64,000 nucleotides of DNA from Escherichia coli (GTDB lineage Bacteria > Pseudomonadota > Gammaproteobacteria > Enterobacterales > Enterobacteriaceae). How positions within the stretch are numbered: the first letter of the stretch is position 1; each line of letters starts with the position of its first letter. The stretch is from NCBI RefSeq assembly GCF_009931435.1, contig NZ_CP043414.1; one strand, given 5' to 3'. This document shows, piece by piece, positions 15,209 through 60,304 of this stretch. The notes beneath the pieces were generated by a model, which saw only the letters and a list, made by a program, of their open reading frames with translations, did not search any database and had not been told where the DNA came from. The position numbers were made by a program, and so were the translations under genes.

Positions 15209-16510
15209 ATGGCGCAATTCTACTCTGCAAAACGACGCACGACGACGCGTCAGATCATAACTGTTTCAGTCAACGACCTCGACTCTTTTGGTCAGGGCGT
15301 GGCACGACATAACGGCAAAGCGTTATTTATTCCTGGATTATTGCCACAGGAAAACGCGGAAGTTACTGTTACTGAAGATAAAAAACAGTACGCCCGCGCT
15401 AAAGTCGTGCGCCGGTTAAGCGATAGCCCGGAACGCGAAACGCCACGCTGCCCTCATTTTGGCGTATGCGGTGGCTGTCAGCAACAACACGCCAGCGAGG
15501 ATTTACAGCAGCGAAGCAAAAGTGCGGCACTCGCCCGATTAATGAAACACGAAGTCTCTGAAGTGATCGCCGATGTTCCCTGGGGCTATCGCCGTCGCGC
15601 GCGTTTAAGTCTGAACTACTTACCGAAAACACAGCAACTTCAGATGGGGTTTCGCAAAGCGGGCTCCAGTGACATTGTCGACGTTAAACAATGCCCCATT
15701 TTAGTGCCCCAACTTGAAGCATTGCTGCCCAAAGTCAGGGCATGCCTGGGCAGCTTACAAGCTATGCGCCATCTTGGTCATGTTGAACTGGTACAGGCAA
15801 CCAGCGGCACGCTGATGATTTTGCGCCATACCGCACCGCTAAGTTCGGCAGATCGCGAAAAACTGGAACGCTTTTCGCATTCTGAAGGCCTGGATCTGTA
15901 TCTCGCCCCCGATAGTGAGATACTCGAAACCGTCTCTGGTGAGATGCCCTGGTATGACTCAAACGGGTTGCGCTTAACTTTTAGCCCGCGCGATTTTATT
16001 CAGGTCAATGCGGGTGTGAACCAAAAAATGGTAGCGCGTGCGTTGGAATGGCTGGATGTACAACCTGAAGATCGCGTACTGGATCTGTTCTGCGGTATGG
16101 GCAACTTTACACTGCCATTGGCGACACAAGCTGCCAGTGTGGTGGGTGTAGAAGGCGTTCCGGCGCTGGTTGAAAAAGGCCAGCAGAATGCGCGTCTTAA
16201 TGGCTTACACAATGTGACGTTTTATCACGAAAATCTTGAAGAAGATGTCACAAAGCAGCCGTGGGCGAAAAACGGCTTCGATAAAGTGTTGCTGGACCCG
16301 GCGCGAGCAGGTGCCGCAGGTGTTATGCAGCAAATTATAAAACTGGAACCTATTCGTATAGTTTATGTATCCTGTAATCCTGCAACGCTGGCTCGGGATA
16401 GCGAAGCGTTATTAAAAGCAGGATATACCATTGCGCGACTGGCGATGCTGGATATGTTCCCACACACGGGACATCTGGAATCGATGGTACTTTTCTCGCG
16501 CGTTAAATAG
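15209..16510 (+). CDS. rlmD: 23S rRNA (uracil1939-C5)-methyltransferase
   Basis: 433-aa [33 protein letters not shown]... with TRAM domain, Cys cluster ([11 protein letters not shown]) and SAM-MTase motif. Confidence 0.93.
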
Positions 16511-28395: not shown

Positions 28396-29218
28396 GAGTT
28401 CCCCGCGCCAGCGGGGATAAACCGGCGGTAAAATTGTTGCTACCGTCTGGCCCTTGCGAGTTCCCCGCGCCAGCGGGGATAAACCGACGGTGCAGGATCT
28501 GTAATTCTTGCTCGCGATGAGTTCCCCGCGCCAGCGGGGATAAACCGAGTTATCAGGATTATTCCCGCTCCGCCGCCAGGAGTTCCCCGCGCCAGCGGGG
28601 ATAAACCGTCGTTTTTGTGGTGGGAGTGTGCGGATTGGTAGAGTTCCCCGCGCCAGCGGGGATAAACCGGCTGACATTGTCAGCTATAACCTTACAATGT
28701 GGAGTTCCCCGCGCCAGCGGGGATAAACCGACGTCCCGCTATTTCCTGGACAGTGTGTAGCGGAGTTCCCCGCGCCAGCGGGGATAAACCGGCGGCGCTA
28801 ACGTGATAATCACGATCAATTATGAGTTCCCCGCGCCAGCGGGGATAAACCGCGGGCGTTAACCTTTTTATAGGCATCTTCCTTGAGTTCCCCGCGCCAG
28901 CGGGGATAAACCGGCTTGCAGCAGCTGCGCCAACATCTGAATACGGAGTTCCCCGCGCCAGCGGGGATAAACCGCTTTTTCCCGTGACAAGATCCAGTTA
29001 ACTGTTGAGTTCCCCGCGCCAGCGGGGATAAACCGCATCACTGGACGCCCATTTGAATAACTCACAGGAGTTCCCCGCGCCAGCGGGGATAAACCGATTC
29101 AGCAAATAGCGAATTTCATAAATATGATGTGTTCCCCGCGCCAGCGGGGATAAACCGTACGTTAAACGCCATCTGTCATGGGTCGTCATGTGTTCCCCGC
29201 GCCAGCGGGGATAAACCA
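28396..29218 (+). CRISPR. type I-E CRISPR array: 14 repeats, 13 spacers (32-33 bp)
   Basis: 29-bp repeat GAGTTCCCCGCGCCAGCGGGGATAAACCG at 28396, 28458, 28519, 28580, 28641, 28702, 28763, 28824, 28885, 28946, 29007, 29068; last two repeats (29129, 29190) are GTGTT variants and the final one ends ...AAACCA. Confidence 0.97.
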
Positions 29219-29671: not shown

Positions 29672-29809
29672 ATATTCCTTGTAAAAACAGGGATAAACCG
29701 AACTAGTTAAAGTTTTTATTATGTTCCCTGCATCAGCGGGGATAAACCGGACTTGTTATCATTTTTTAAGTTGTCGAACTTATGTTCCCCGCGCCAGCGG
29801 GGATAACCA
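29672..29809 (+). CRISPR. degenerate mini-array remnant (about 3 decayed repeats, one clear 32-bp spacer)
   Basis: TTCCTTGTAAAAACAGGGATAAACCG (ends 29700), ATGTTCCCTGCATCAGCGGGGATAAACCG (29721-29749), 32-bp spacer 29750-29781, ATGTTCCCCGCGCCAGCGGGGATAACC (29782-29808). Confidence 0.75.
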
Positions 29810-29855
29810 TTCAGGTATGTTCAGGCCGGGCAGTTTCCCGCCCGGCCTTCCTCAC

Positions 29856-46309: not shown

Positions 46310-48967
46310 GTGACTTTCTTTGATTTCTGGGGAAAAACCCGACGTGGCGAGAAAGAGGGTGGCGACGATTATCACCTTCTTTGCTGGCATTCGCTGGATG
46401 TAGCCGCGATAGGCTATTTAATGGTCAAAAACAACTGTTTCGGGCTGGCTGACTATTTTCGTCAATTAGGTTTCGCTGACACGGATCAGGCAGCACAATT
46501 TTTCGCCTGGTTGTTGTGCTGGCACGATACTGGAAAATTTGCCCGCTCATTTCAGCAACTTTACCTGCACCCACAACTCAAGGTTCCGGAAGGCGCAAGA
46601 AAGAATTACGAAAAGATCTCTCATTCAACGCTGGGTTACTGGTTGTGGCATCATTATTTAATTGAATGTGAAGAGTTGCTTCCTTCATCTTCACTCTCTT
46701 TGCGCAAACTTAAACGAGTAATAGATATGTGGATGCCCGTGACGACCGGGCATCATGGTCGGCCTCCTGACCGTATCGATGAACTGGACAACTTTCTGCC
46801 TGAAGACAAAGCTGCCGCACGGGATTTTCTCCTTGAAATCAAGGTACTGTTTCCGCTCATCGAGATCCCTACATTCTGGGATGATGACGAGGGCGTTGAA
46901 CTTATAAAACATTTTTCCTGGTATATCTCTGCAACCGTCGTACTCGCAGACTGGACGGGATCGTCAACGCGGTTTTTTCCACGCGTTGCACAGGCAATGG
47001 ATATTAAAGATTACTGGCAGAAGGCTTTAGTTCAGGCTCAAAACGCATTAACCGTCTTTCCCCCAAAAGCAGAAAGCGCGCCTTTCACTGGAATTAATAC
47101 GCTGTTTCCTTTTATTGAGAACCCAACACCGTTACAGCAAAAGGTGTTGGATCTGGATATCAGCCAGCCAGGACCACAGTTGTTTATTCTGGAAGATGTG
47201 ACTGGCGCAGGTAAAACAGAAGCGGCGCTTATCCTGGCGCACAGGTTGATGTCTGCGGGGAAAGCACAGGGTTTGTTTTTTGGCCTGCCAACAATGGCAA
47301 CGGCCAATGCCATGTACGATAGGCTGGTAAAAACCTGGCTTGCTTTCTATTCGCCACAATCCCGCCCCAGCCTGGTGCTGGCACACAGCGCTCGTTCGCT
47401 AATGGATCGCTTTAACGCATCGCTGTGGTCTGGTGATTTTGTGGGGTCAGAAGAACCGGATGAACAAGCGTTCAGTCAGGGATGTGCGGCCTGGTTTGCT
47501 GACAGTAACAAGAAGGCGTTGCTGGCTGAAATTGGCGTCGGCACGCTGGATCAGGCGATGATGGCGGTGATGCCGTTCAAACATAATAATCTGCGGCTTC
47601 TGGGGCTGAGTAACAAAATCCTGCTAGCCGATGAGATCCACGCCTGTGACGCTTATATGTCGTGCATTCTTGAAGGGCTGATCGAGCGGCAGGCGCGTGG
47701 CGGAAACAGCGTTATTTTGCTTTCTGCTACGTTGTCTCAACAGCAGCGTGACAAACTCGTCGCCGCCTTTGCGCGTGGTGCAGAGGGCCAGCAAGAAGCT
47801 CCGTTGCTGGAAAAAGATGATTATCCCTGGCTGACGCATGTCACGAAATCCGATGTGCATTCGCACCGGGTAGCGACGCGCAAAGACGTTGAGCGCAGCG
47901 TGAGTGTGGGTTGGCTTCATAGCGAACAAGAGTGTATTGCGCGTATCGAATCGGCGGTAAGTCAGGGGAAATGCATCGCCTGGATTCGGAATTCTGTCGA
48001 TGACGCCATCCAGGTTCATCGTCAGCTGCTTGCCCGCGGCGTCATTCCTGCTTCCAGCCTTTCACTTTTTCATAGCCGCTTTGCTTTCAGCGATCGCCAG
48101 CGAATTGAAACGGAGACGCTGGCACGCTTTGGTAAAGAAGACTGTTCACAGCGTGCCGGAAAAGTCCTCATTTGTACTCAGGTCCTGGAGCAGAGCGTCG
48201 ACTGCGACCTGGACGAAATGATTTCCGACCTTGCCCCTGTTGATTTACTGATCCAGCGAGCAGGGCGATTACAGCGACATATCCGCGATATTAATGGTCA
48301 GTTAAAGCGTGACGGTAAAGACGAGCGTCACCCTCCTGTATTGCTGATTCTGGCCCCCGTCTGGAACGACTCTCCGGGTGAAGAATGGTTTGGCTGTGCC
48401 ATGCGTAACAGTGCATTTGTCTATCCCGATCATGGGCGAATCTGGTTGACGCAGCGTGTGCTGCGTGAACAAGGCGCGATTCAGATGCCACACTCAGCCC
48501 GGCTTCTGATTGAATCAGTCTACGGTGAGGACGTGGTAATGCCGGAAGGGTTTGCCCGCAGCGAGCAGGAGCAAGTGGGCAAATACTACTGCGATCGTTC
48601 AATGGCTAATAAGTTTGTGCTGAACTTCAGGCCCGGCTATGCCGCCAATATCAACGATTACCTCCCGGAAAAACTGTCGACACGTCTGGCTGAAGAGTCT
48701 GTTTCCCTGTGGCTGGCTAGCTGTATTGGCGGTGTGGTGAAGCCTTATGCCACCGGTGCACACGCATGGGAAATGAGCGTTGTCAGAGTGCGCCAAAGCT
48801 GGTGGAAAAAACATCGGGATAAGTTTTCTTTACTGGAAGGGGATGCGTTCAGGCAGTGGTGCGTTGAACAGCGGCAAGATCCGGAGATGGCAAACGTGAT
48901 TTTGGTCACCGATGACGAAAGTTGTGGATATTCGGCTACGGAGGGATTGATTGGCAAGGTTGGTTGA
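46310..48967 (+). CDS. cas3: Cas3 HD-nuclease/helicase (type I-E)
   Basis: 885-aa ORF (GTG start, AAGGA RBS); HD motif ...LLCWHDTGKF..., Walker A VTGAGKTEA, DEIH box LLADEIHACD, then helicase C-terminal region. Confidence 0.93.
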   Translation: MTFFDFWGKTRRGEKEGGDDYHLLCWHSLDVAAIGYLMVKNNCFGLADYFRQLGFADTDQAAQFFAWLLCWHDTGKFARSFQQLYLHPQLKVPEGARKNYEKISHSTLGYWLWHHYLIECEELLPSSSLSLRKLKRVIDMWMPVTTGHHGRPPDRIDELDNFLPEDKAAARDFLLEIKVLFPLIEIPTFWDDDEGVELIKHFSWYISATVVLADWTGSSTRFFPRVAQAMDIKDYWQKALVQAQNALTVFPPKAESAPFTGINTLFPFIENPTPLQQKVLDLDISQPGPQLFILEDVTGAGKTEAALILAHRLMSAGKAQGLFFGLPTMATANAMYDRLVKTWLAFYSPQSRPSLVLAHSARSLMDRFNASLWSGDFVGSEEPDEQAFSQGCAAWFADSNKKALLAEIGVGTLDQAMMAVMPFKHNNLRLLGLSNKILLADEIHACDAYMSCILEGLIERQARGGNSVILLSATLSQQQRDKLVAAFARGAEGQQEAPLLEKDDYPWLTHVTKSDVHSHRVATRKDVERSVSVGWLHSEQECIARIESAVSQGKCIAWIRNSVDDAIQVHRQLLARGVIPASSLSLFHSRFAFSDRQRIETETLARFGKEDCSQRAGKVLICTQVLEQSVDCDLDEMISDLAPVDLLIQRAGRLQRHIRDINGQLKRDGKDERHPPVLLILAPVWNDSPGEEWFGCAMRNSAFVYPDHGRIWLTQRVLREQGAIQMPHSARLLIESVYGEDVVMPEGFARSEQEQVGKYYCDRSMANKFVLNFRPGYAANINDYLPEKLSTRLAEESVSLWLASCIGGVVKPYATGAHAWEMSVVRVRQSWWKKHRDKFSLLEGDAFRQWCVEQRQDPEMANVILVTDDESCGYSATEGLIGKVG

Positions 48968-49063
48968 TATGCCTGCGACAGGATTCTCTGAATAGTTGAT
49001 ACACAAAAAAGGATGGAAGGATGGATAACCGACCTGGGATGGTCTTTTTACGAGAGGATGCGT

Positions 49064-50626
49064 ATGAACTCGTTTTCACTTCTGACAACCCCGTGGTTGC
49101 CCGTTCGTTATAAAGACGGAACGACAGGCAAACTGGCGCCAGTCGATCTGGCGGATGAAAATGTTGTCGATATCGCTGCGCCGCGGGCAGATCTCCAGGG
49201 TGCGGCATGGCAGTTTTTGCTGGGACTACTACAAACCAGCTTCGCGCCCAAAAATCACGGTCGTTGGGATGATATATGGGAAGACGGACTGGAAGCTGAA
49301 AAGCTAAGGGAAGCATTGCTGTCTTTAGAACATGCTTTCCAGTTTGGCCCAGATTCCCCTTCATTTATGCAGGATTTCGAGGCGCTTACGGGAGATAAAG
49401 TTCCTGTCGCTTCGTTACTGCCTGAAATTCCCGGCGCTCAAACAACGAAGTTCAATAAAGACCACTTTATTAAGCGTGGCGTGACTGAACACATATGCCC
49501 TCATTGTTCCGCGTTAGCGCTGTTTTCCCTACAGTTAAATGCGCCGTCAGGCGGCAAAGGCTATCGCACCGGTTTGCGCGGCGGTGGGCCAATGACGACG
49601 CTGATTGAATTACAGGAATATCAGGGCAATCAACAAACACCCTTGTGGCGCAAACTGTGGCTCAACGTGATGCCGCAGGATGAATCTGACTTACCGCTAC
49701 CCAAAAAATTTGGCGATCTGGTTTTCCCCTGGCTTGGCCCGACGCGTACCAGTGAACTGGCCGGTGCGGTGGTAACTGATGATCAGGTCAACAAACTCCA
49801 GGCGTACTGGGGAATGCCTCGGCGCATACGTGTTGATTTTAATACCACGACAGTCGGCAACTGCGATATTTGCGGTGAGCAGAGCGACGCGCTCCTGAGC
49901 CTGATGACGACCAAAAATTACGGTGCGAATTATGCCATGTGGCAGCATCCCTTAACGCCCTACCGTATACCACTTAAAGAGGGCGGCGAGCTTTACTCGG
50001 TTAAACCACAACCGGGCGGTTTAATCTGGCGCGACTGGCTAGGACTTATCGAAACGGGTAAGTCAGAAAACAATACGGAACTTCCCGCGCTGGTGGTGAA
50101 ACTCTTTAATGCCAGCAGTCTGAAACAGGCAAAAGTGGGCCTGTGGGGATTTGGCTATGATTTCGACAACATGAAAGCGCGCTGTTGGTACGAACACCAT
50201 TTCCCGCTACTGCTCAATAAAAAAGAAGGCCAGATACCAAAGCTGCGGCTGGCTGCGCAAACGGCTTCACGGATTCTAAGTCTGTTACGGAGTGCATTGA
50301 AAGAAGCATGGTTCTCCGATCCAAAAGGTGCACGGGGTGATTTCAGTTTTGTGGATATCGACTTCTGGAACAAAACTCAGCATCGCTTCCTGAGGTTAGT
50401 GCGTCAAATTGAAGAAGGTCAGGAGCCGGATGAATTACTCAGCAAATGGCAAAAGGAAATGTGGTTATTCGCGCGTCAGGATTTTGACGAGCGGGTATTC
50501 ACTAATCCTTATGAGCCCGTTGATTTGAAACGCGTCATGACCGCGCGCAAGAAATATTTTACAACATCGGCGGAGAAGCAAAGTGCTAAAGCCGCCAGGG
50601 AGAAAAAGCAGGAGGCTGCTGAATGA
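49064..50626 (+). CDS. casA: Cse1/CasA, Cascade large subunit
   Basis: ORF track starts 49013; the ATG at 49064 has a GAGAGG RBS and gives MNSFSLLTTPWLPVRYKDGTTGK..., a Cse1-family N-terminus; about 520 aa. Confidence 0.85.
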   Translation: MNSFSLLTTPWLPVRYKDGTTGKLAPVDLADENVVDIAAPRADLQGAAWQFLLGLLQTSFAPKNHGRWDDIWEDGLEAEKLREALLSLEHAFQFGPDSPSFMQDFEALTGDKVPVASLLPEIPGAQTTKFNKDHFIKRGVTEHICPHCSALALFSLQLNAPSGGKGYRTGLRGGGPMTTLIELQEYQGNQQTPLWRKLWLNVMPQDESDLPLPKKFGDLVFPWLGPTRTSELAGAVVTDDQVNKLQAYWGMPRRIRVDFNTTTVGNCDICGEQSDALLSLMTTKNYGANYAMWQHPLTPYRIPLKEGGELYSVKPQPGGLIWRDWLGLIETGKSENNTELPALVVKLFNASSLKQAKVGLWGFGYDFDNMKARCWYEHHFPLLLNKKEGQIPKLRLAAQTASRILSLLRSALKEAWFSDPKGARGDFSFVDIDFWNKTQHRFLRLVRQIEEGQEPDELLSKWQKEMWLFARQDFDERVFTNPYEPVDLKRVMTARKKYFTTSAEKQSAKAAREKKQEAAE

Positions 50627-51159
50627 GTATTGTAAAAGAGGAGCACAAAGCCACGCTGCGCAAATGGCACGAGGAATTGCAGGAAAAACGCGGCAATCGT
50701 GCCAGTCTGCGGCGTAGTACGACGGTTAATGATGTTTGTTTGTCAGAAGGGTTTCGTTCTCTGCTGATGCAGACCCACACGTTGTGGAAAGTTGAAGCGC
50801 AAGAGTGGCGTTTTACCGCACTGGCACTGGTCGCTGCAGTTAGCGCCAATGTAAAAGCCATTGATGAACGGCAGCCTTTTGCCGCGCAGCTGGCGGCAGT
50901 AATGTCAGAAGGGCGGTTTTCGCGCCTGTCGGCAGTAAAAACGCCGGATGATTTACTGCGCCAGTTACGTCGCGCGGTCAAATTATTAAACGGTTCCGTC
51001 AATCTTATCTCTTTGGCAGACGATATTTTCCGCTGGTGCCAGGAGAGTGACGACCTGCTCAACCATCACCGCCGTCAGCAGCGGCCAACAGAATTTATCC
51101 GTATCCGCTGGGCGCTGGAATATTACCAGGCTGGCGACGCCGATAACGAACAAAATTAA
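50623..51159 (+). CDS. casB: Cse2/CasB, Cascade small subunit
   Basis: 178-aa ORF; GGAGG RBS; ATGA overlap with the casA stop; operon position. Confidence 0.85.
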   Translation: MSIVKEEHKATLRKWHEELQEKRGNRASLRRSTTVNDVCLSEGFRSLLMQTHTLWKVEAQEWRFTALALVAAVSANVKAIDERQPFAAQLAAVMSEGRFSRLSAVKTPDDLLRQLRRAVKLLNGSVNLISLADDIFRWCQESDDLLNHHRRQQRPTEFIRIRWALEYYQAGDADNEQN

Positions 51160-51173
51160 TAAAGGACTATCTC

Positions 51174-52229
51174 ATGACGACATTTATTCAGCTCCATTTG
51201 TTAACCGCTTACCCTGCAGCCAACCTTAACCGTGATGACACCGGTGCGCCGAAAACCGTGGTGCTGGGTGGAGCAACGCGTCTGCGCGTTTCCTCGCAAA
51301 GTCTGAAACGTGCGTGGCGCACTTCTGCACTTTTTGAACAGGCGCTGGCGGGCCATATTGGTATTCGTAGTGGGCGTATCGCGCGCGAGGCAGCAACTAT
51401 CATGATTGAGAAAGGAATCGAAGAAAAAAAAGCCATCGAATGGGCGGCAGATATTGCCGATTATCTTGGTAAAGCCAAAAAAGACAAAAAAACAAAAGAT
51501 CCGCTCACTAACGCTGAAACTGAACAGCTCGTCCATATCAGCCCTGCAGAATTTGACGCCGTAAAAGCGCTGGCCCATCAACTGGCAGAAGAAAAGCGCG
51601 CGCCAAAAGAGGACGATCTCGCTTTGTTACGTAAAGATCGTATGGCGGTAGATATCGCCATGTTTGGTCGTATGCTGGCGAATAAACCCGAGTTTAATGT
51701 TGAAGCCGCCTGTCAGGTCGCGCACGCGTTTGGTGTCAGTGAAACGATTGTCGAAGATGATTTTTTCACCGCCGTTGATGATTTGCGCCAGGCCTCTGAA
51801 GATGCTGGTGCAGGGCATCTTGGTGAAACTGGGTTTGGTTCTGCGCTGTTCTACACCTATATCTGCATTGATAAAGATCTGCTGGTCGAAAACCTCGGCG
51901 GTGACGAAGCATTAGCTAATCAGACCCTGCGCGCCTTTACGGAAGCAGCGTTTAAAGTTTCCCCAACCGGTAAACAAAACAGCTTTGCCAGCCGTGCCTA
52001 CGCCTCCTGGGCGCTGGCAGAAAAAGGCACCGAACAACCGCGTTCTCTGGCGGCGGCTTTCTATGAACCCATTAATGGCACACGTCAGTTAGATGTGGCA
52101 GTGCAGCGTATTACAACGCTTCGCGAAAACATGAATACGGTTTACGAACAGAAGACCGAATGCGCAAGTTTTGACGTGATGAACAAACAGGGAAGCATGA
52201 AGGACGTGCTGGACTTTATCTGCGCGTAA
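51174..52229 (+). CDS. casC: Cas7e/CasC, Cascade backbone
   Basis: 351-aa ORF MTTFIQLHLLTAYPAANLNRDDTGAPKTVVLGGATRLRVSSQSLKRAWR... (Cas7 RAMP signature). Confidence 0.9.
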   Translation: MTTFIQLHLLTAYPAANLNRDDTGAPKTVVLGGATRLRVSSQSLKRAWRTSALFEQALAGHIGIRSGRIAREAATIMIEKGIEEKKAIEWAADIADYLGKAKKDKKTKDPLTNAETEQLVHISPAEFDAVKALAHQLAEEKRAPKEDDLALLRKDRMAVDIAMFGRMLANKPEFNVEAACQVAHAFGVSETIVEDDFFTAVDDLRQASEDAGAGHLGETGFGSALFYTYICIDKDLLVENLGGDEALANQTLRAFTEAAFKVSPTGKQNSFASRAYASWALAEKGTEQPRSLAAAFYEPINGTRQLDVAVQRITTLRENMNTVYEQKTECASFDVMNKQGSMKDVLDFICA

Positions 52230-52239
52230 GGGGCGGCTT

Positions 52240-52986
52240 ATGAGCCAATATCTGATTTTTCAGCTTCATGGGCCAATGGCATCCTGGGGCGTTGATGCAC
52301 CCGGTGAGGTGCGTCATACCCATGAACTGCCTTCGCGTTCAGCATTGCTGGGGCTGCTGGCTGCCGGGTTAGGGATACGGCGTGATGACACCGAATGCTT
52401 AAACGCGTTTAATCGCCACTATTCACTGGTGGTTTGCGCCAGCCGTAACCCGCGCTGGGCACGGGATTATCACACGGTCCAGATGCCAAAAGAGGTGCGT
52501 AAAGCGCGTTATTTCAGCCGTCGCGAAGAGTTGAGCGACCCTGATCTTCTAAGCGCGATTATCTCCCGGCGCGACTACTACACCGATGCCTGGTGGATGG
52601 TGGCCGTGGCAACAACAGCTGATGCGCCTTACAGCCTCGAACAGTTGCAGGAAGGTTTACGCCATCCGGTTTTTCCGCTTTATCTGGGGCGAAAAAGCCA
52701 TCCGCTGGCGTTACCCCTTGCGCCGTTACTGCTCGAAGGCAACGCGTCTGATGCCTTACGTACCGCATATCAACAGTATCAGGATCGTTTCCACGAACTA
52801 AAAGTCTCACTCCCGAAACTTCAGGATGAATGCTGGTGGGAAGGGGAACACGACGGCCTGGTCGCGAGCAAAATATTACGCCGCCGGGATGTTCCTTTAA
52901 ATCGTCAGCAGTGGCTGTTTGGGGAACGCACTGTCAATCAGGGGCCGTGGCTCAGCAAGGAGGAACCATGTACCTCTCAAGAATAA
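52240..52986 (+). CDS. casD: Cas5e/CasD
   Basis: 248-aa ORF MSQYLIFQLHGPMASWGVDAPGEVRHTHELPSRSALLGLLAAGLGIRRDD... (Cas5e N-terminal signature). Confidence 0.9.
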   Translation: MSQYLIFQLHGPMASWGVDAPGEVRHTHELPSRSALLGLLAAGLGIRRDDTECLNAFNRHYSLVVCASRNPRWARDYHTVQMPKEVRKARYFSRREELSDPDLLSAIISRRDYYTDAWWMVAVATTADAPYSLEQLQEGLRHPVFPLYLGRKSHPLALPLAPLLLEGNASDALRTAYQQYQDRFHELKVSLPKLQDECWWEGEHDGLVASKILRRRDVPLNRQQWLFGERTVNQGPWLSKEEPCTSQE

Positions 52987-53614
52987 CCTTACATACCGGC
53001 CAGCTTTCCCCAGCGCAGTTGCTGCATCTGGTGGATCGCGGTGAATATGTGATGCATCAGTGGCTGTGGGATCTTTTCCCTGGCGGCAAAGAAAGGCAAT
53101 TTCTTTATCGTCGGGAAGAACTCCAGGGCGCGTTTCGCTTTTTTGTCCTGTCGCAGGAACGCCCGGCGGAAAGTGAAACGTTCACCATCGAATGCCGGTC
53201 ATTTGCGCCGGAGCTGCGTACCGGACAATCCCTTTTTTTCAACCTGCGAGCGAATCCAACAGTCTGTAAAGCGGGTAAGCGCCACGATCTGCTGATGGAG
53301 GCGAAACGGCAGGTGAGGGGGCAGGCGGAAGGAAGTGATGTCTGGTTGCATCAACAACAGGCGGCGCTGGGCTGGCTGGCTGCGCAGGGAGAGAGAAGTG
53401 GTTTTACACTGCTGGATACCTCGGTCGATGCCTACCGACAACAGCAACTGCGGCGGGAAAATGCCCGGCAACTGATCCAGTTCAGTAGCGTGGATTATAC
53501 GGGGATGCTGACGGTCACCGAGCCAGGGTTATTTCTGCAACGTCTCTGCCTGGGGTATGGCAAAAGCCGGGCGTTCGGCTGTGGTCTGATGTTAATCAAA
53601 CCCGGAGCAGAGGC

Positions 53615-53618
<4 letters not shown>
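52968..53618 (+). CDS. casE: Cas6e/CasE, pre-crRNA endoribonuclease
   Basis: ORF track starts 52830; the ATG at 52968 with AGGAGG RBS gives MYLSRITLHTGQLSPAQLLHL...; contains FNLRANP and C-terminal glycine-rich GYGKSRAFGCGLM motifs. Confidence 0.88.
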
Positions 53619-54828
<1,210 letters not shown>

Positions 54829-54924
54829 GTTACCCGTTCTTTAAAAATAAGGAAATGTTTGAATTTAGTTGGTAGATTGTTGATGTGGAATAAAATTGTT
54901 TAAAAACAGATACGTATGCTTAGT
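54829..54924 (+). promoter_or_regulatory. CRISPR leader of the cas2-proximal array
   Basis: AT-rich 96 bp; AGTTGGTAGATTGT at 54868-54881, 43 bp upstream of the first repeat. Confidence 0.8.
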
Positions 54925-56050
54925 GTGTTCCCCGCGCCAGCGGGGATAAACCGTGGATTATGACGCCAGAGAGCTTCCTGTTTGCGTGTTCCCCGCGCCA
55001 GCGGGGATAAACCGCTGGCTAATAACATCCCACTGAATATTATTTCGTGTTCCCCGCGCCAGCGGGGATAAACCGAGGTGTGGCATGCGGGGAATTATGA
55101 TCCGGTAGTGTTCCCCGCGCCAGCGGGGATAAACCGTGACAACGGCCGGCCGCTCTTTTTGCGGTCATGTGTTCCCCGCGCCAGCGGGGATAAACCGATC
55201 ATCGGCATCATCTCGTGATACTCATCCGGCGTGTTCCCCGCGCCAGCGGGGATAAACCGCCCAGGCTTTACGTGAGCTGGCGGATGTGGCCGTGTTCCCC
55301 GCGCCAGCGGGGATAAACCATACGGTCAAGCGATATCAGGGGTACTGTGTCGTGTTCCCCGCGCCAGCGGGGATAAACCGGGCGCCGCATCTTTATCGTA
55401 AAGCATGTAAAGGTGTTCCCCGCGCCAGCGGGGATAAACCGACCGCTCACACCCAGACAAGCGCCACTAACGTGTGTTCCCCGCGCCAGCGGGGATAAAC
55501 CGAACGCCGCATCAGCTAAATACGCTAAAAAAATGTGTTCCCCGCGCCAGCGGGGATAAACCGCGGCTGATACTCAGGAGCAGGCCAGAGAGCGTGTGTT
55601 CCCCGCGCCAGCGGGGATAAACCGTACCACCTGTGTATTGAGTTACGTCGCCGGGGGTGTTCCCCGCGCCAGCGGGGATAAACCGGAGCTTCATCGGTGG
55701 TTCTGGGAGCAACGGGAGTGTTCCCCGCGCCAGCGGGGATAAACCGGCACAAGTGACTACATCAAGGATGGGGAATGGGTGTTCCCCGCGCCAGCGGGGA
55801 TAAACCGATTAACATTGCAATTGAATTGACGCGTATGAGGTGTTCCCCGCGCCAGCGGGGATAAACCGCAGGCAGCACGGCGGGTTTTGCCCGGATATTT
55901 GTGTTCCCCGCGCCAGCGGGGATAAACCGCAAAACCAATAGGTGCTTTCCACATTGCAGAAGTGTTCCCCGCGCCAGCGGGGATAAACCGCTCTCGGTTC
56001 TGGGGTACTGTTACCCATAACTGAGCTCCCCCGCGTCAGCGGGGGAACTC
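54925..56050 (+). CRISPR. type I-E CRISPR array: 19 repeats (18 canonical plus degenerate terminal), 18 spacers
   Basis: 29-bp repeat GTGTTCCCCGCGCCAGCGGGGATAAACCG at 54925, 54986, 55047, 55108, 55169, 55231, 55292, 55352, 55413, 55474, 55535, 55596, 55657, 55718, 55779, 55840, 55901, 55962; terminal degenerate GAGCTCCCCCGCGTCAGCGGGGGAACTC (56023-56050); spacers 31-33 bp. Confidence 0.97.
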
Positions 56051-56072
56051 CCAGCTCCCATTTTCAAACGCC

Positions 56073-59699: not shown

Positions 59700-60304
59700 T
59701 GGCGCTGCATGACGAAAACGTCGTCTGGCATAGCCATCCGGTCACAGTGCAACAACGCGAGCAACACCACGGTCATCGTGGTGTTGTGTTGTGGTTTACC
59801 GGCCTATCCGGGTCCGGTAAATCCACGGTCGCCGGGGCGCTGGAGGAGGCGTTACATAACCTTGGTGTCAGTACGTATTTGCTGGATGGCGACAACGTCC
59901 GCCACGGCTTATGCAGCGATCTCGGTTTTAGCGATGCCGATCGTAAAGAGAATATCCGTCGCGTCGGTGAAGTGGCGAATTTAATGGTTGAAGCTGGACT
60001 GGTGGTGCTGACCGCTTTTATCTCGCCACACCGCGCCGAACGCCAGATGGTTCGCGAACGCGTAGGAGAAGGGCGTTTTATCGAAGTGTTTGTCGATACG
60101 CCGCTGGCGATTTGCGAGGCCCGCGATCCAAAAGGCTTATATAAGAAAGCACGTGCCGGTGAACTGCGTAACTTTACGGGAATAGATTCCGTTTACGAAG
60201 CACCTGAATCGGCAGAAATTCATCTCAATGGTGAACAATTAGTAACAAATTTGGTACAGCAATTATTAGATCTGTTGAGACAGAACGATATTATCAGATC
60301 CTGA
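59699..60304 (+). CDS. cysC: adenylyl-sulfate (APS) kinase
   Basis: 201-aa ORF with P-loop GLSGSGKST; start overlaps the cysN stop. Confidence 0.96.

Follow-up and report, generated by a model that had tools for sequence, protein, structure and literature searches.

In the normal course of spacer acquisition by Cas1-Cas2, the 3'-OH of the C opposite the PAM G attacks the repeat-spacer junction, and the G comes to lie after the leader-proximal repeat. Departures from this outcome have been described in adaptation experiments. Shmakov et al. (2014) interpreted a downstream CTT with C at +32 in the E. coli type I-E system as the mark of inverted AAG protospacers, the correct orientation of AAG protospacers being favoured 30-fold or more, and in overexpression-driven naive adaptation 63% of the acquired fragments were non-AAG (PMC4027179). 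Prespacers of 32 bp form a further documented class, making up 0.3% of usage, and 88-96% of these are AAG-associated and lack the PAM-distal base (10.1101/2020.02.10.942821). Flipping of slipped or odd-length prespacers has likewise been described in the literature. The locus analysed here lies within a stretch of 64,000 nucleotides (the window) and carries a type I-E array in which a single unit probably records an inverted insertion of this kind, preserved in a natural chromosome.

The complete cas operon (46310-54828, plus strand), identified from the ORF list and NCBIfam profile models, consists of cas3 (46310-48967), cse1/cas8e (49013-50626), cse2 (50623-51159), cas7 (51174-52229), cas5 (52240-52986), cas6e (52830-53618), cas1 (53615-54538) and cas2 (54535-54828), all on the plus strand and with coordinates from the ORF list. 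Seven of the eight Cas proteins had a type I-E model as their best NCBIfam match, with a score over the curated cut-off; for Cas3, the core and HD domain models were above cut-off and the full-length model PRK09694 was below it (420.9 versus 569 bits). Cse1 was matched strongly by the general I-E model, with the E. coli-type model PRK09693 below cut-off. We take the operon at 46310-54828 to be the non-K-12 variant of the E. coli I-E operon, which is paired with GTGTTCC repeats. An AT-rich leader on the same strand (54829-54924) separates cas2 from the first repeat, and the array itself (54925-56051, plus strand) comprises 18 full 29-nt repeats of the sequence GTGTTCCCCGCGCCAGCGGGGATAAACCG, the first starting at 54925, together with 18 spacers and a degenerate terminal repeat (56023-56051). 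Directly after the terminal repeat follows iap-cysDNC, in a flank that is 95-98% identical to E. coli chromosomes, which marks the host as E. coli or a very near relative. The cas set in one operon, the lengths of repeats and spacers, and the AWG PAM (see below) are those of an E. coli-type I-E locus.

Sixteen of the 18 units in the cas2-proximal array measure 61 bp, made up of the 29-nt palindromic repeat and a 32-nt spacer; unit 5 has 62 bp, and unit 7 is one base short. The initial annotation had singled out repeat 7, and the coordinates and sequence it gave are exact. Among the 18 full repeats, repeat 7 (55292-55320) alone ends in A, this A (55320, plus strand) occupying the slot usually held by the PAM-derived G, and the spacer that follows (55321-55351) is 31 nt long, giving a unit of 60 bp rather than 61. 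The rarity of such a unit is apparent from a survey of nine arrays with 84 unique units, where the insert was 33 bp in 80 units, 34 bp in three and 32 bp in one, namely unit 7 itself. Two 34-bp inserts (33-nt spacers) occur in the window, in s5 of the cas2-proximal array (55197-55230) and s1 of the distal array (28424-28457), and no protospacers were found for either of them.

In the distal array (28396-29218), 12 repeats are of the GAGTTCC... type and the two after them of the GTGTTCC... type. The terminal repeat of this array, at 29190-29218, likewise ends in AAACCA, with non-spacer sequence behind it. Recombination with this terminal repeat was considered as a source of the odd end of repeat 7 and was rejected, as the sequence after it is unrelated. 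About 500 bp beyond the distal array lies a mini-array (29721-29810) with two degenerate repeats and a single spacer; judging from match counts, this spacer may explain why nearly all E. coli genomes gave a match to a single spacer.

What ordinarily fills the last position of the repeat could be read from four other spacers of the cas2-proximal array with recognizable protospacers. The G plus spacer 6 of the next-younger unit (s6; 55259-55291, plus strand) matches PhiR41_1 at 16194-16226 in 32 of 33 positions, in normal orientation and with an ATG PAM, the phage sequence preceding the G being ...ctaAT. Both s14 (PAM ATG) and s17 (PAM AAG) are 100% identical to sequences in the DUF551 gene of phage vB_EcoP-611R6, and s18 (PAM AAG) matches PhiR41_1 with three mismatches. 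The G at the repeat end agrees with the protospacer in all four cases (s6, s14, s17 and s18). With AWG flanks and a matching G, these control spacers demonstrate that the system uses an AWG PAM and copies the G into the array. The premise of the initial annotation, that the 29th base of the repeat is supplied by the acquired DNA, is thus borne out, and it extends to unit 7, where the A falls inside an uninterrupted match to foreign DNA.

This match covers the 32 nt at 55320-55351 (plus strand; hereafter spacer 7), which read ATACGGTCAAGCGATATCAGGGGTACTGTGTC with the odd A included and are 100% identical to phage-plasmid DNA (E = 2e-8 and 6e-8). Four phage records (Cyrano, PhiR41_1 and two CMS-2020a records) match at 100%, as do about 200 plasmids (>180), which are non-mobilizable, 100-115 kb in size and mostly from E. 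coli and Shigella. These elements are presumably phage-plasmids of the SSU5/pLF82 type. The protospacer lies in a 336-nt gene annotated as "minor tail protein M" or "phage tail protein"; in PhiR41_1 it occupies 60155-60186, inside the CDS at 59887-60222. When the C at 55319 is included, the match grows to 33 nt in 199 plasmids from complete E. coli genomes, and the C that closes the duplicated 28 bp of repeat 7 (55292-55319, plus strand) could therefore just as well be part of the insert.

Given that 55320-55351 matches the invader in 32 of 32 positions including the A, which the phage has in this position too, preceded there by GTC, the A was brought in by the acquired DNA rather than arising by mutation of a repeat base. 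To this extent the initial annotation, which had attributed the A to an aberrant acquisition, was correct. A G-to-A substitution in an ordinary repeat, combined with a 1-nt deletion in a forward spacer, can hardly be the explanation. Point mutations of repeats are known in natural arrays (that of E. coli N96 has them in repeats 2, 5 and 19), but here the A agrees with the protospacer, the phage has no G at or beside the position (GTC/ATACGG, the slash marking the insert boundary), there is no AWG upstream, and two independent mutations would be required.

The flanks of the protospacer in the phage read tgtgacagtC/ATACGG...GTGTC/TTaac. In the orientation of the array, the PAM position is thus taken by TCA, or by GTC if the A is counted as spacer, and neither AAG nor ATG was found at offsets -2 to +2 of the 5' side (GACAGTC/AT) in the known phage-plasmid variants. 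This bears on the two origins put forward in the initial annotation, a PAM other than AAG and a slipped integration. A forward slip, with the PAM one or two bases off, is the commonest origin of non-AAG spacers in primed adaptation, and a natural +1 slip is present in other E. coli (see below); the 5' flank GACAGTC, however, holds no AAG or ATG within 2 nt, which effectively excludes a slip in forward orientation and leaves it next to no probability. The AAG that the initial annotation had regarded as incompatible with its proposal does exist, but at the other end of the insert and on the complementary strand. That strand reads GTT-AAG-ACACAGTACC..., so that a canonical AAG abuts the far end of the insert, and the C pairing with its G (55351, plus strand; phage ...GTGTC/TTAAC) is the last inserted base at the leader-distal end, the signature of a flip. 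The CTT across this 3' junction is kept in two major plasmid variants, representing ~181 of the 199 plasmids.

The AAG at the other end on the complementary strand indicates that the fragment went in reversed, and the A would then not be derived from a non-AAG PAM, contrary to what had been proposed. The lack of a 5' PAM, a complementary-strand PAM at the other end and a C as the last inserted base are together what is expected of an inverted spacer. We consider it likely that spacer 7 is a flipped, one-base-short insert from a protospacer with a canonical AAG in the tail gene of an SSU5/pLF82-like phage-plasmid. In such an event, the PAM-side end of the fragment would have attacked the leader-repeat junction instead, placing the C that pairs with the PAM G beside the downstream (leader-distal) repeat at 55351, and the trimmed PAM-distal end would have filled the G slot after the 28-bp repeat, giving the A at 55320. 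The integrated fragment would effectively have been 32 bp rather than 33, with the PAM-distal base gone.

The same sequence could have been acquired directly in forward orientation without a proper PAM (TCA or GTC), for example by naive adaptation, the AAG at the far end then being coincidental. The non-AWG 5' flank of the protospacer is in keeping with this, naive adaptation takes many non-AAG fragments with a weak orientation preference (PMC4027179), and spacer 7 as it stands shares its phage strand with the four other spacers that match. In addition, one of the four non-G units encountered in this work (PK5/H7, CTGGATC...CACTG) ends in G and can be assigned to no class. Against such an origin, about 1/64 of random fragments would have a perfect AAG at the flipped position, its G within the insert; the non-AAG, non-slip spacers of primed adaptation are strongly enriched for G at -1 where spacer 7 has A; and a second natural non-G unit (in N96, see below) likewise shows a CWT at its far end. 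With coincidence at about 1/64, direct PAM-less acquisition keeps some room, and we regard it as unlikely. Strand bias adds weak evidence either way: its usual direction would put a flipped spacer from the favoured strand on the other strand, which speaks against a primed flip.

The length of the unit is not that of a simple inversion. A clean 33-bp flip, in a 61-bp unit, predicts AAACC+CATACGG, or AAACCCATACGG, at the junction, and the 60-bp unit in the array has AAACC+ATACGG, or AAACCATACGG. As the array differs from the clean-flip prediction, a second irregularity or an assembly error must be assumed. The 60-bp unit as such is no argument against inversion, since flips of odd-length prespacers have been described. 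Three routes could have led to the shortfall: a 32-bp prespacer without its PAM-distal base may have been integrated, a 33-bp prespacer may have been joined one nucleotide inside the repeat, or one C may have been lost from the CCC run by replication slippage or assembly error. The three give an identical sequence and cannot be told apart. The suggestion of imprecise integration in the initial annotation consequently survives in part, as the missing base pair fits a 32-bp prespacer lacking the PAM-distal base, although not as the forward slip that had been envisaged.

Loss of a C, whether as a homopolymer error in sequencing or assembly or as a later slippage deletion, would imply an original AAACC+CATACGG in a 61-bp unit with a repeat ending in C. 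Such a loss would account for the missing base pair alone and can stand alongside the flip. The phage does have a C right before ATACGG, the match then being 33/33, and the missing base falls in a C run (CCC at 55317-55319). The predominance of 33-bp inserts in the survey and the scarcity of 32-bp prespacers in experiments also fit a lost base. The other 17 full repeats nevertheless match the consensus and the cas ORFs are intact, with no sign of poor sequence, and 32-bp prespacers without the PAM-distal base are a documented class. On balance, we consider a lost C to be rather unlikely, while giving it appreciable weight.

Had the fragment been inserted in the usual orientation, the AAG-forward version of spacer 7 would read GACACAGTACCCCTGATATCGCTTGACCGTATG. 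As it stands, unit 7 would give rise to a crRNA that has AUAAACCA as its 5' handle and faces TCA (or GTC) in the flank of the target. The consensus PAMs of E. coli are ATG and AAG, and 36 of the 64 trinucleotides supported neither interference nor priming (PMC6568314). With TCA and GTC outside the consensus interference PAMs, spacer 7 is predicted to be dead or weak, and probably contributes little to interference. The spacer acquired next, s6, derives from the same element and the same strand, and may have been primed by s7, an order of events that the data permit rather than demonstrate. One could go further and imagine that the flipped terminal C and the final C of the repeat served as a microhomology, shifting the second strand transfer one nucleotide into the repeat, and that the dead s7 subsequently primed the acquisition of s6; this combined scenario is doubtful. 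If the microhomology route were true, unit 7 would preserve, in a natural array, a kind of ruler imprecision that is confined to prespacers in the wrong orientation.

Spacer 7 is accompanied in the array by other matches to the same element. PhiR41_1 is matched by five of the 18 spacers (s6, s7, s14, s17 and s18; 55259-55291, 55320-55351, 55746-55778, 55929-55961 and 55990-56022, respectively), all on the same (plus) strand, with s7 as now oriented. The protospacers of s14 and s17 lie within 77 bp, in a DUF551 gene that is also found in P22-like and Stx prophages. The remaining 13 spacers were without a match in the plasmid search, and in the phage search only s14 and s17 matched. The pattern suggests repeated, possibly primed, encounters with the phage-plasmid family of PhiR41_1.

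The initial annotation had proposed that the same spacer be compared in other strains. This was pursued, and no strain searched carries spacer 7 in an array: it is absent, in either orientation, from the chromosomes of 5,426 complete E. coli genomes, and in the observed orientation from the GTDB species representatives and JGI metagenome contigs. The collections searched may simply be without the pair-mate spacer of spacer 7. Searches with the whole array and with spacers only returned one related array, in E. coli N96, in which s11-14 and s18 are the only common spacers. Since N96 shares only spacers on the iap side, the polarity of the leader is confirmed, and s1-s10 are younger and lineage-specific.

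The N96 array itself (NZ_CM169999.1, CRISPR adjoining cas2) contains a second case of a repeat with an odd end, repeat 8 (L007 750-810), which also ends in A. This A and the following 32-nt spacer agree with rlmM in 33 of 33 positions, and the 3' junction reads CAT. The source of the insert is chromosomal and present in essentially all E. coli, and by its sequence the unit is a flipped, full-length, self-derived ATG protospacer. For a CWT at this junction, the chance expectation is about 1/32 per case. The inversion may be the reason why a perfect self-match is tolerated in N96. A different origin is found in unit 2 of E. coli E400634, 24A16CRGN010 and E200086 (L013, L014 and L018), ACGTGGCAAC...GCAA, which begins with A; its protospacer on an IMG/VR contig (L019 624-656) is preceded by ATG, which makes this a natural +1 slip. 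The insert shared by unit 2 of E. coli PK5 and unit 3 of H7 (L015 and L017), CTGGATCAGCTGG...CACTG, has C as its first base and G as its last, and no protospacer was found for it in IMG/VR. Two of the four non-G units from the survey end in C. Natural non-G repeat ends thus have mixed origins (flip, slip and unexplained), as do those obtained in adaptation experiments.

The flip mechanism was already known, and what is recorded in unit 7 is most likely an ordinary error of acquisition that leaves the understanding of the system unchanged. Its value is that of a clean natural case of flipping as described in the laboratory, preserved in a wild, E. coli-like genome and involving a spacer that targets a widespread phage-plasmid family. 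A type I-E repeat that does not end in G may be looked upon as a readable insertion scar, from which flip, slip and short prespacer can be separated once the protospacer is known. For annotation, flipped spacers are probably non-functional for interference and call for caution, and the possibility that a spacer is inverted must be considered when PAMs are deduced from natural arrays.

Compared with the systems described at the outset, unit 7 shares with the flipped spacers obtained experimentally (PMC4027179; 10.1101/2020.02.10.942821) the opposite-strand AAG at the far end, the terminal C and the CTT across the junction, as well as a repeat end other than G and a crRNA that would face a non-PAM flank. 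It differs from the laboratory cases in its setting, a natural chromosomal array, and in its insert of 32 bp (or an ambiguous C) in place of 33 bp. The 32-bp prespacers of 10.1101/2020.02.10.942821 are likewise AAG-associated and one base short on the PAM-distal side, but they were integrated in forward orientation, whereas spacer 7 is short and, in the reading preferred here, also flipped. Slipped spacers (+1/-1) similarly leave non-G repeat ends, from which spacer 7 is set apart by a 5' flank with no AWG in the range of a slip. The rule that incoming DNA supplies the 29th position of the repeat is followed by the four control spacers, and in unit 7 the slot appears to have been filled by the same rule from the non-PAM end of the fragment.
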